Source: a virus. From it: DNA of 28,535 bases. Both the position numbers and the translations under genes were made by a program. The DNA lies in the IMG/VR virus record IMGVR_UViG_3300025913_000091, positions 1 to 28,535 of that record; one strand, given 5' to 3'. Under the pieces are notes generated by a model. That model had not been told where the DNA came from and searched no databases. It was given only the letters and a program-made list of their open reading frames with translations. Positions 222-3,452 of this stretch are shown one piece after another. How positions within the stretch are numbered: the first letter of the stretch is position 1; the number at the start of each line of letters is the position of its first letter.

Positions 222-539
222 ATGGCCTTGCTTCACCAGCACGAGTGCGTCAAGATCCTGGCCGTGGGCCCAGTGCTGGCCTTCGGCCTGTCACCTGGAC
301 AGCTGTGCTGCCACGCTGACGACAAGAGCTCGTTCGGCATGGTCATCGCCGCGGGCAACGGCCAGTGCACCGTCCTGTGGTCGATCCCACCGAGAGGGAC
401 CCTCGACATGATGGTGATCAAGATGCAGGACATCAAGGCGGAATCACGCCAGCTGAGGACAGAATGGAGAACGACCGATGTCGATGACCTGATGAAGAAT
501 CCGGTCATTCGCACGCTCATCGGGTTCGAGCCAGCGTGA
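222..539 (+). CDS. small protein, VLWS-module family member A; C-terminal segment resembles the central conserved motif of gp23-type major capsid protein
   Basis: ATG preceded by AGGAGAG; high GC3; module SFGMVIAAGNGQCTVLWSIPP; tail IKAESRQLRTEW..DDL versus T4 gp23 IEAKSRQLKAAY..QDL (recalled). Confidence 0.7.
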   Translation: MALLHQHECVKILAVGPVLAFGLSPGQLCCHADDKSSFGMVIAAGNGQCTVLWSIPPRGTLDMMVIKMQDIKAESRQLRTEWRTTDVDDLMKNPVIRTLIGFEPA

Positions 540-569
540 CCCTGCGAGAGCGACAGGACCAGGCCTTCT

Positions 570-962
570 ATGCTTACGACTCAATGTGGCTCTGGCGTAT
601 ATCGAGGACCGCGTGCTGCTCCTCGCGGCGACGAAGTACTTGGACGACGCCTCGCGCCAGGCCAACTCTGGAGTTGGTCACTCAATGTCAATGAGGGCTT
701 CTACTTGTGGCAACGGGTCACCGAAGCAGGAAGAGTTGGCTTTGATGCCTCCGTAGAGGTTGTTTACCACGGTGATGTCTTCATGCTGATGGCTCTCGAC
801 GACTCAGGTCCGTACGAGATGCCCAATGACATGTTTGACGCAAATGGCGCGCTCATTCCGCGCGTCGTTCATCGATGGCACATCGTCCTGTTGAGAGATG
901 TCCTCTACTGGTTCCGTCACGATTATTTCGCCACCGCTGAACTTCTTCAGGACGTGCCGTAG
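570..962 (+). CDS. hypothetical protein, start uncertain
   Basis: 130-aa ORF with lower GC3 than neighbours. The distal two thirds look coding; the first ~100 nt score better in another frame. Stop TAG 960-962 lies inside the next -10 element. Confidence 0.45.
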   Translation: MLTTQCGSGVYRGPRAAPRGDEVLGRRLAPGQLWSWSLNVNEGFYLWQRVTEAGRVGFDASVEVVYHGDVFMLMALDDSGPYEMPNDMFDANGALIPRVVHRWHIVLLRDVLYWFRHDYFATAELLQDVP

Positions 963-965
963 GAT
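937..965 (+). promoter_or_regulatory. sigma70-like promoter, leaderless type, for CDS 972
   Basis: CTGAAC-N17-TAGGAT, then 6 nt to ATG 972. Confidence 0.55.
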
Positions 966-971
966 GGTGCT

Positions 972-1307
972 ATGCACGCCCTGTGTAGGCTGCGCCTGAG
1001 CCAGTGCAAGGACCCTCGGTGTGCTCACCAGCGACTGAGGCAAGAAAAGCGTGATGCCGAGCGCGCCCGCCGCAAGGCCCGGCTGCTGCGCAAGGAGATC
1101 CAGCGACGTTTCCCGCCTGGGACGCTGGGGGTGGTCAACACCAGGATCAACGTCGCTCCAGAGCTCTTGTCGTTCACTGTCTTCGGTTGGGGACAAACTG
1201 ACAAGGGCTGGGAGGCTCTCGTCCTGCGCAATGGCACGCTGACGACCTGGGGCTGGAGCACCTTCGAACATTGCTCCACGCTGGAGGAAGTCGTGAGGAG
1301 AGGCTGA
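972..1307 (+). CDS. hypothetical protein, paralog pair member 1 (RRFPPG..LTTWGW..CSTLEE)
   Basis: ORF with high GC3; aligns with the next ORF (KEIQRRFPPGTLGV/RELQRKFPPGAMGV; FTVFGW/FTVVGW; HCSTLEE/SCKTLEE). Confidence 0.7.
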   Translation: MHALCRLRLSQCKDPRCAHQRLRQEKRDAERARRKARLLRKEIQRRFPPGTLGVVNTRINVAPELLSFTVFGWGQTDKGWEALVLRNGTLTTWGWSTFEHCSTLEEVVRRG

Positions 1308-1308
1308 C

Positions 1309-1647
1309 GTGGGACGCGGAGCGCTTCTCCACGAGAACGACAGGCGGCGGCAGGACCGCGTCTCCCGGCGCGAACTGCAGCGCAAGTTCCCACCGGGCGC
1401 GATGGGCGTCTGGGGGACGACAATGTTCACCGTCGTCGGCTGGGCGCCCGTCGCCGCCACGCCCGCAGTGCCCTCTCGCGGTCCAGATCCGGTCCAGGGG
1501 TACTTCACCACCGCAAAAGCGGCCCAGCCCGCCAGCTGGGAGGTCGCCGTCCTGGTGGGACAGCGGCTGCTGACGTGGCAGTGGACTGTCCTCAAGTCGT
1601 GCAAGACCCTGGAGGAGTGGACGGCGGAGGAAGATGCGGTTCCTTGA
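1309..1647 (+). CDS. hypothetical protein, paralog pair member 2
   Basis: GTG start 1 nt after the previous stop; high GC3; paralogous to 972-1307. Confidence 0.7.
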   Translation: MGRGALLHENDRRRQDRVSRRELQRKFPPGAMGVWGTTMFTVVGWAPVAATPAVPSRGPDPVQGYFTTAKAAQPASWEVAVLVGQRLLTWQWTVLKSCKTLEEWTAEEDAVP

Positions 1648-1915
1648 GGAGCGAAACGTCCACCTGATGCGCGCCGGCACCGCCGACTGGCTGGGCCACG
1701 AGCCCAAGGCGGGAGACGCCGTCTACTACACCGGCGACTTCGACAGCTTCGGCATCGTCGTGGGGGCCCCCGACCTGGAGACCTCCTACGTCGTCTGGAG
1801 CCGCCCGCCCACGCCCGGGCACCGGCAGGTGCAGGCCGCCGCCGAGGAGATCAGAGACGAGATCGACGCCGACATCCTCGAGGTGCTGCGCACCCAAGAG
1901 GACGCGCGGCCGTGA
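1634..1915 (+). CDS. small protein, VLWS-module family member (C1)
   Basis: Module PKAGDAVYY..SFGIVVGAPDLETSYVVWSRPP; 14-nt overlap with the upstream ORF; high GC3. Confidence 0.7.
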   Translation: MRFLEERNVHLMRAGTADWLGHEPKAGDAVYYTGDFDSFGIVVGAPDLETSYVVWSRPPTPGHRQVQAAAEEIRDEIDADILEVLRTQEDARP

Positions 1916-2133
1916 TCCTCGCCGAGTACCGCTTCTCCGGGCAGCTGGTCCCCGTGGCGAGCCCCCGCAAGCGCCTGGAACCGGGAGACCTGGTGACCCA
2001 CAACCAGTGGCCCGACAGCCTGGGCCTGGTCGTCTGTGTCCTGCCCAGGCTGTACGGCGTCCTGTGGTCCAGGACGAACGAGACGACGCGGGCCCTCGAC
2101 GACGAGCTCGAGGCCATCAGGCGGGGGATGTGA
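1912..2133 (+). CDS. small protein, VLWS-module family member (C2)
   Basis: GTGA start/stop overlap; module LEPGDLVTH..SLGLVVCVLPRLYGVLWS. Confidence 0.65.
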   Translation: MILAEYRFSGQLVPVASPRKRLEPGDLVTHNQWPDSLGLVVCVLPRLYGVLWSRTNETTRALDDELEAIRRGM

Positions 2134-2140
2134 GCCGGCA

Positions 2141-2169
2141 TTGAACTGCAGGCGCCTGCCGTGTACTGT
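2141..2169 (+). promoter_or_regulatory. sigma70-like promoter, leaderless type, for CDS 2176
   Basis: TTGAAC-N17-TACTGT, then 6 nt to ATG 2176. Confidence 0.6.
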
Positions 2170-2175
2170 GTGGGC

Positions 2176-2574
2176 ATGAAGAACCCGTTCAGCCCATACC
2201 GCGAGCCGCCCAAGCAGGAATCCCTCCCGCCACCCGACGAGCTGCCCAACAAGATCGACAGGACGTTCTTCAACATCGAGACCAAGTTCACCTTCGCCGA
2301 TGGGCGCGCCTTCGACGTCTCCTTCGAGCACGATCGGATCCCTGAGGAGTGGGTCGATGGCGGCACCTACTACCTGGTCGAGGCGCCGCCGCACGTCTCA
2401 GGCGAGAGTCGCATGGACTCTTACGTGCAGGCAGCACATTCGAAGGGCTTCTTCACCTTCTCCAAGGACGGCAAGCTGCATGTGATGCCGTGGGACGACT
2501 TCAAGGAAGCCGTCGCCCAGACCGCCTCTTCCAAGAAGGTCAACGTCACCTGGGCCTGGAAGCGTAACAAGTAA
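2176..2574 (+). CDS. hypothetical protein
   Basis: ORF 2161-2574; ATG 2176 (MKNPFSPY..) chosen because it lies 6 nt after the -10; high GC3. Confidence 0.7.
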   Translation: MKNPFSPYREPPKQESLPPPDELPNKIDRTFFNIETKFTFADGRAFDVSFEHDRIPEEWVDGGTYYLVEAPPHVSGESRMDSYVQAAHSKGFFTFSKDGKLHVMPWDDFKEAVAQTASSKKVNVTWAWKRNK

Positions 2575-2586
2575 GGACAGGCTGAC

Positions 2587-2970
2587 GTGGCGATCCTCGA
2601 GACATACGACCGAAAGGGTGGGGGCAGGACGCTGGCTCCGGCGATGCGGACCCGGTGGAGGACCCCCAAGATGGCACCGGGCACCTTCGTGGAGGACATG
2701 CGCGAGCCCAAGGGCGACCGCGGCTTCGGCACCGTCGTCGGAATCACTGAGGACGAGATCGCTGTCCTGTGGTCCTCGCCTCCCATGGCGTTGAAGAGGC
2801 GCCTCGATCCCAGTCGCCACAACCCGCTGGCGTCCGCAGAGGACTTCACGGTCTCCATCATCACCTCGAGCCACACACCCCAGACGCCCCAGCAGGACGC
2901 CGAGGACGTCGAGTACTTCCGGAAGAACCTGTTCGCGGCCCTCAAGGTGCCCAAAGAGATGCTGCGGTGA
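2587..2970 (+). CDS. small protein, VLWS-module family member D; C-terminal ~45 aa resemble a T4 gp20-type portal segment
   Basis: GTG start; module MAPGTFVED..GFGTVVGITEDEIAVLWSSPP; tail AEDF..EDVEYFRKNLFAALKVPKEML versus T4 gp20 TEDYW..[21 protein letters not shown] (recalled). Confidence 0.7.
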   Translation: MAILETYDRKGGGRTLAPAMRTRWRTPKMAPGTFVEDMREPKGDRGFGTVVGITEDEIAVLWSSPPMALKRRLDPSRHNPLASAEDFTVSIITSSHTPQTPQQDAEDVEYFRKNLFAALKVPKEMLR

Positions 2971-3452
2971 GCTTCCTCCGCACATACGACCGAGACATCT
3001 TCCGGTCAGACAACGGCGTCCGGGAGTGGCCCATCGTCCCGCTCAGGAACGACGGCGACGAGTGGGAGGTCGACGACCGCCCAGGCCTCCCGCCCATGTG
3101 CCCAGGCGACTGGGTCGCTCACCGCTCCGACGGCGGCCGCGGCATCATTGTCGCCATCAACGATGAGCAGGCCTCAGTCGTCTGGTCCCTCCTGCCGGAG
3201 GAGCGCGATCTCTCGAAGTTCGCCTTTCCCATCGTCAGGACGACGTTCCCGCAGCTGCAGGCCCAGCAGCTCGTCTCCGTCCAACCCATGACCGCACCTG
3301 TGGGTGCCATCTTCTACATGGACTACAAGTACGGGAATGGCAGCGAAGCCCCTCCCGCTGCGGCCCCGCCCGGCCCAGGCTTCCCCAAGCCCAACCGCCG
3401 GGCCCCACGGCGGCCTGGTCGGCCCCCTCGAGGCCCTAGAAAAAACCCGTGA
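2967..3452 (+). CDS. small protein, VLWS-module family member E; carries a gp23 Gol-region-like segment and a Pro/Arg-rich tail
   Basis: GTGA overlap with the previous stop; module MCPGDWVAH..GRGIIVAINDEQASVVWSLLP; IVRTTFPQLQAQQLVSVQPMTAPVGAIFYMDYKYG versus T4 gp23 MVRRAIPNLIAFDICGVQPMNSPTGQVFALRAVYG (recalled). Confidence 0.7.
   Translation: MSFLRTYDRDIFRSDNGVREWPIVPLRNDGDEWEVDDRPGLPPMCPGDWVAHRSDGGRGIIVAINDEQASVVWSLLPEERDLSKFAFPIVRTTFPQLQAQQLVSVQPMTAPVGAIFYMDYKYGNGSEAPPAAAPPGPGFPKPNRRAPRRPGRPPRGPRKNP

Follow-up and report, generated by a model that had tools for sequence, protein, structure and literature searches.

Five small genes lying in tandem between positions 222 and 3452 of the IMG/VR virus record IMGVR_UViG_3300025913_000091 encode proteins that appear to be built from two parts: a common N-terminal module of ~75 amino acids (aa), predicted to form a small beta domain, and a C-terminal tail that differs from one protein to the next. 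In one of them, P0008, the tail carries a segment that aligns as a homolog of the N-terminal region of the mature T4-type major capsid protein (MCP), gp23. In the gene immediately upstream, P0004, we recognize with moderate confidence a segment of the portal protein, gp20. The favored reading, weighed below, is that such proteins mimic pieces of the phage head and might in this way act on head assembly. The window, throughout, is the record in its entirety: 28,535 bp of linear DNA, ~67% in GC content, and 8% complete by the estimate of CheckV.

The module genes and their shared N-terminus

An earlier note on this DNA, made from the sequence alone, had proposed five + strand open reading frames (ORFs) that share an N-terminal module, and all five are present: P0001 (222..539), P0002 (1634..1915), P0003 (1912..2133), P0004 (2587..2970; 127 aa) and P0008 (2967..3452; 161 aa). 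They carry the marks of real coding genes. Four of the five display a strong high-GC coding signature, with GC content at third codon positions (GC3) of 0.82–0.95—0.94 in P0002 and 0.95 in P0003—and GC content higher at first than at second positions, and in a frame plot of codon usage, for which the large genes of the window served as training set, the coding frame falls on each module ORF in turn. The genes are tightly packed, with 4-nt overlaps of the ATGA type at 1912/1915 and 2967/2970; overlaps of four bases are usual among tightly coupled phage genes. An in-frame GTG at 2769 offers a longer alternative start for P0008, but it is the version from 2967, of 161 aa, that is called as the gene on a relative contig that is 99% identical.

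The module begins with a hydrophobic N-terminus that includes a TYDR-like motif and continues through PGDWV.H and GxGxVVA to DDQ..VLWSxEP. Its core occupies aa ~42–76 of P0001 (nt ~345–449), ~24–59 of P0002 (nt ~1703–1810), ~22–56 of P0003 (nt ~1975–2079), ~29–66 of P0004 (nt ~2671–2784) and ~43–77 of P0008 (nt ~3093–3197), and the module sequences that the earlier note had listed are correct. Profile hidden Markov models (HMMs) were built from the aligned N-terminal regions, each protein being omitted in turn, and searched against the 502 six-frame ORFs of the window. The omitted member was recovered at E 2.4e-7 to 1e-5 while the top non-member scored E 0.08–1.2, a separation that bears out the claim of a common module. 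At the DNA level the module genes resemble one another only in short patches, mostly ribosome-binding sites and starts, from which we conclude that the copies are not recent duplicates.

AlphaFold models of the 11-member P0008 family (P0011–P0021) fold residues 1–80 into a small beta domain, with predicted local distance difference test scores (pLDDT) of ~80–86 and predicted strands at residues 3–8, 23–28, 49–52, 56–64 and 68–75. The capsid segment is disordered in the model, as one would expect if its folding required a partner. Foldseek, run with the module model against the Protein Data Bank (PDB), gave no match at E<=0.001. A wide fold search with VIA gave none that was clear, the best, at Z 3.5, being to FKBP/SlyD-type, SH3-like and beta-barrel N-domains. 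The module is also without a match in Pfam, PHROGs, NCBIfam and PADLOC, where the module proteins met no defence model, and its profile matches no solved structure among the PDB sequences. By these searches no described family covers the module, in line with the earlier note, which knew of none that joins one such module to different fragments of virion proteins, and neither the module nor its combination with a head-protein segment is catalogued in the databases checked.

The module profile search also returned P0136, a protein of 1832 aa whose repeats, GNGLWVAVG...QILWSxDP..GW, resemble the GxGxVVA...VLWSxEP of the module. The likeness hints that the module may be related to a repeated beta-blade motif.

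A capsid-protein segment in P0008

The tail of P0008 is matched by Pfam Gp23 (PF07068) at E 7.4e-11, above the gathering cutoff, over profile positions 6–50 of 376, and by PHROG 138, ‘major head protein’, at E 6e-9; a search of the genome places the match at 3216–3350. By PDB alignment, P0008 aa 85–129 correspond to residues 96–138 of full-length T4 gp23, which are residues 31–73 of gp23*. Judged by these alignments, aa ~85–129 (nt ~3219–3353) are homologous to the mature N-terminal, or N-arm, region of gp23. By tblastn the same segment turns up in MCPs from 132 phage records, including those of Rhodothermus phage RM378 (MCP residues 21–104) and Campylobacter phage CPt10 (residues 22–102), and BLASTP of P0008 returns the RM378 and CPt10 MCPs at E 2e-11 and E 2e-9. 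Head vertex proteins of the gp24 type, from Synechococcus phages, are matched as well.

The capsid segments are 40–55% identical to MCPs and contain the invariant motif VQPM.AP.G..FYMDY.YG. Every member of the P0008 family retains both module and capsid segment, and of the two it is the segment that is the more conserved, with 13 invariant columns in the family to the module's 6. This is the mark of purifying selection, not of decay.

P0008 is nevertheless no capsid protein. It shares with gp23 and gp24 the conserved segment and its VQPM.xP.G..F motif, but holds only ~45 residues of gp23, behind an unrelated N-terminal module and ahead of a Pro/Arg-rich C-terminus; the rest of gp23 is missing, and with it the HK97-fold. 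At 161 aa it falls short of a full-length Gp23 capsid protein, which has ~450–650 aa and a Gp23 domain over most of its length; the genuine MCPs that sequence patterns of the capsid segment picked out are 480–670 aa long. When P0008 was searched by tblastn in annotated phage genomes, only full MCPs were found, and no record covered 80% of the query.

A probable portal segment in P0004, and the other tails

P0004 aa 100–126 (nt ~2884–2964) align to residues 352–378 of T4-type portals (Serratia phage CHI14; D.DDV.YFR.NL..AL..P), and an ortholog, P0007, on a contig from the European Nucleotide Archive (ENA) shows the identical alignment. The profile matches are to Pfam Portal_T4 (PF07230) at E 0.0025, below the cutoff, and to PHROG 213, portal, at E 6.4e-4 and at the same position; tblastn places the tail in the portals of several T4-like phages, again in agreement with the profile position. 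This part of gp20 includes the channel loop, made up of residues 350–359, which is exceptionally well conserved, contacts the DNA, and is adjoined by stem helix a7 (PMC4493910). We consider it moderately well supported by these alignments that the P0004 tail copies the portal channel loop and stem helix. With a 27-aa segment that scores below the cutoff, P0004 does not belong to the gp20 family proper: it has the channel loop and stem helix a7 but none of the other portal domains. Searched at full length in annotated phage genomes, P0004 found nothing.

The tails of the five proteins differ from one another, and those of P0001, P0002 and P0003 have no significant match in Pfam, PHROGs or NCBIfam, or to head proteins by BLASTP. 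The best that the P0002 tail achieved was E 0.043 to the CPt10 MCP, which, in a database of three sequences, is not significant. The earlier note had counted at least three tails with a match to capsid or portal. Two of them stand, that of P0008 strongly and that of P0004 weakly to moderately, and no third could be added. Its further claim, that the copied segments are among the most conserved parts of gp23 and gp20, holds for both: residues 96–138 of gp23, and the channel loop of the portal (PMC4493910).

A large family of phage genes

Profile search with the module alignment through 1.84 billion proteins gave, at E<=1e-3, 485 cluster representatives (50% identity clusters). Nearly all are 60–240 aa long with the module at the N-terminus, and the few long matches are repeat proteins of low complexity. 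Among 139 representatives, 53 (~38%) match Pfam Gp23 and 49 match the PHROG major head protein; the portal segment is far rarer, with a single match to Portal_T4 and a single match to the PHROG portal. One representative, P0024, from another contig, is near-identical to P0001. The Atlas cluster of the family is 100% viral. The family is large, confined to phages, and uncatalogued.

Tandem module paralogs with different tails are kept in distinct phages, represented by contigs from the Joint Genome Institute (JGI), Logan and IMG/VR. An ENA contig from sample ERZ27252312 has the same gene order as the window, with a 109-aa ortholog of P0004 (69% identical) followed by a 162-aa gene that matches Gp23, and a second contig from this sample is 99% identical across the entire cluster. 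Two contigs, one from JGI (L010/L096) and one from Logan (L012), bear three to five tandem module genes each. In both of these, the paralog directly upstream of the capsid-segment gene carries a C-terminal segment of the MCP instead, matching residues 451–519 of the RM378 MCP at E 8e-8 and 6e-7.

In every locus examined the family genes are distant from the head and structural genes. Their neighbors encode AAA ATPases, metallophosphoesterases, eIF-1a-like proteins, peptidase M24, deformylase and lipoproteins. Such a location, among non-structural genes and at a distance from the head-gene module, suits proteins that are something other than structural building blocks.

Pattern scans of IMG/VR were less productive. 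Patterns for the capsid segment retrieved 80 contigs, all with full MCPs and none with a module gene within 10 kb, and patterns for the module retrieved only two contigs. Nor do we draw on a nearest-neighbor test in which 57 of 62 small-protein segments were closest to another small protein: at ~40 aa the segments are too short, and the sampling of MCPs too biased, for a single ancient capture to be told from repeated capture, and the result is not evidence for either.

Two other observations concern these contigs. In the IMG/VR contig 3300025018_000846 (L048), which also has a full MCP, an ORF of 69 aa (5422–5628, + strand) matches the capsid-segment profile at E 2e-5, and is possibly another small protein bearing the segment. 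The JGI contig encodes, besides its module-gene cluster, a 947-aa protein with a Pfam MVP_shoulder domain (4672–7515, − strand).

Neighboring genes and the genome

Interspersed with the module genes, and on the same strand, are small genes without the module. The first, at 570..962, was recognized on inspection of the translations by the motif RWH..L..DxLxWxxH..F..AELL; its product is also encoded upstream of module genes in the JGI relative (6912–7142) and the Logan relative (5589–5942). Next comes a tandem pair of paralogs from a second small family (972–1307 and 1309–1647), with the motif RRFxPGT..G..W..SWEAL..TLEEW and a DNA repeat common to their start regions. The family recurs in the JGI contig (7169–7441) and in an ENA contig, Leok0YUi. 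Between P0003 and P0004 lies a gene for a 137-aa protein (2161..2574), conserved in Leok0YUi (2190–2588), and downstream of P0008 comes a gene for a protein of 118 aa (3504..3860), syntenic in Leok0YUi and a further ENA contig, oaNPr4qt.

Logan contigs from the source run, a 2017 rhizosphere metagenome that is the same sample and so not independent, span most of the region. None in that run covers 1401–1800, which proves nothing. One of them omits 747 bp (1079 to 1827); this may reflect phages in the population from which the second-family paralogs have been deleted, a weak case given the low depth and the mere 21 letters on one side.

Elsewhere the window encodes host-like proteins: a GroEL-type Cpn60 chaperonin (15786–17459, − strand), an AAA+ ATPase (18485–19948, − strand), PRPP synthetase, Fpg/MutM, and Band-7 and VWA proteins. 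Host-like genes of this sort are typical of large phages, and a fragment that carries GroEL and is 8% complete probably belongs to the jumbo-type phages. The GroEL is ~45% identical to GroELs from other phages and from bacteria. An AAA+ ATPase is found also on another contig with a module cluster (L095, 4557–5783), where it is clamp-loader-like by PHROGs.

What the proteins might do

The reading that we favor is molecular mimicry. Each protein would consist of the N-terminal beta module and, at its C-terminal end, a short segment that copies a conserved head-protein interface: the mature N-terminal region (N-arm) of the gp23-type MCP, the C-terminal segment of the MCP, or the channel loop and stem helix of the portal. 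The copied segment would bind the site on procapsid or portal that is normally held by the original, the module would be carried along, and head assembly would be modulated. On the homology, we give about an even chance that the proteins bind head proteins through their copied segments. That they are dominant-negative interferers with the head assembly of co-infecting related phages is a more tentative proposal, and the chances are somewhat against it. The decoy and dominant-negative roles suggested in the earlier note are plausible in this light, whereas the chaperonin and host sensors that it named as possible targets are purely conjectural. More elaborate still, and unlikely in our estimate, would be a modular system of capsid-assembly interference, in which each paralog mimics a different head interface and the one common beta module serves as effector or adapter, plugging sites in co-infecting relatives or in the phage's own assembly.

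Several considerations weigh against all this. Binding by mimicry is proposed from homology only, and the anti-competitor role from gene position and the pattern of paralogs. Three of the five tails match nothing, and a fusion with virion segments may describe only a subset of the family; detection is biased toward the most conserved segments, however, and the tails that it missed might yet be copies of other head proteins. The module itself could be the active part and the tails its targeting signals. Finally, a phage that poisons the assembly of close relatives risks poisoning its own, and no mechanism of specificity is evident.

Could the proteins be part of the head instead? If they were virion proteins of their own phage, minor or internal, they would use their copied segments to co-assemble with its own procapsid, at the lattice or N-arm, or with its portal vertex, and the module would be built into the head or packaged inside it, in the way that varied cargo is carried by the internal proteins of T4 on a shared capsid-targeting sequence. 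The capsid and portal homology that suggests mimicry also supports this, and jumbo-type phages, the probable home of the fragment, pack many internal proteins. The combination of a conserved targeting element with variable parts has a parallel, too, in the internal proteins of T-even phages (PMC3012670). The layout, however, is the reverse of theirs, for here it is the module that is conserved and the would-be targeting tails that vary, and the genes lie far from the structural genes in every locus examined. We regard this alternative as improbable, though it survives better than the others.

A role in the phage's own head assembly of a regulatory or chaperone-like kind strikes us as distinctly less probable. 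The proteins might, for example, cap free sites on the MCP N-arm or the portal ahead of assembly, and the regions copied, of MCP and portal alike, are indeed those that take part in assembly contacts; or they might work with the phage GroEL (15786–17459) in the folding of capsid protein. The phage does encode Cpn60 (Pfam E 3.9e-67), and the folding of T4 gp23 is known to require chaperonin help, with mutations that bypass gp31 mapping to the P-domain (PMC9546572). Yet no Cpn10 match was found in Pfam or NCBIfam, GroES was not among the fold matches in the Foldseek and VIA searches, weak as these are, and the GroEL gene, 12 kb from the cluster, has no link to it beyond a common genome.

A long shot of much the same order is that function resides in the module, which would have no connection with the head—as a host-interacting effector, for instance—and that the head segments are incidental fusions, kept after recombination with structural genes of the same phage. 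Some 62% of family members have tails without a detectable head-protein match, and the fold of the module, which found no clear match by Foldseek or VIA, leaves room for such a role. It is hard to square with the finding that, within the P0008 family, conservation is highest in the copied segment, which argues that the segment is functional and not incidental, or with the consistency with which the paralogs within each genome bear different head segments.

That the ORFs are debris without function, recent pseudogene remnants of the MCP and portal genes of this very phage, is highly improbable, for although the recognizable tails are short pieces of head proteins, the ORFs have strong coding signatures, tandem module paralogs and head segments are conserved across many distinct phages, and the segments, far from near-identical to MCPs, are diverged from them and highly conserved within the family. 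Recent pseudogene debris is accordingly rejected: the copies have diverged in DNA sequence and show a strong coding signal, the arrangement is conserved and the copied segment is under selection. The alternative floated in the earlier note, ‘fixed debris of recombination’, fares no better, in view of an arrangement kept in distant phages, a family of 485 representatives, and a segment that surpasses the module in invariant columns by 13 to 6.

If the proteins do bind procapsid or portal as the mimicry reading supposes, they would make up a natural and widespread class of assembly-targeting mimics: weapons in the competition between phages, perhaps, or hitherto unrecognized accessory components of jumbo-type heads. 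They would, besides, offer ready-made peptide tools with which to probe the interfaces of the capsid N-arm and of the channel loop in the portal, and testing a single system would assign a function to a large set of uncatalogued phage genes, those behind the 485 representatives.

Comparison with known systems

Small proteins that redirect the capsid assembly of another phage are familiar from satellites, in the form of Sid of P4 and CpmA and CpmB of the SaPIs, and the module proteins bear them a hypothetical likeness in function. To our knowledge, neither Sid nor CpmA/CpmB is built from copied segments of capsid proteins, and the module cluster, unlike the genes of these remodellers, sits in a phage and not in a satellite. 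The internal proteins IPI, IPII and IPIII of T-even phages are alike in another way, for they too join one conserved element to variable parts and are tied to head assembly; the capsid targeting sequence (CTS) is their only conserved feature (PMC3012670). The mark of a T-even internal protein is an N-terminal targeting peptide of this kind, removed by the prohead protease, together with packaging in the prohead core. The proteins described here probably belong neither to the T-even internal proteins nor to the satellite capsid remodellers. Where the variable parts of the former are defence enzymes, here the conserved part is a beta module of ~75 aa, and it is the variable parts that copy head proteins.

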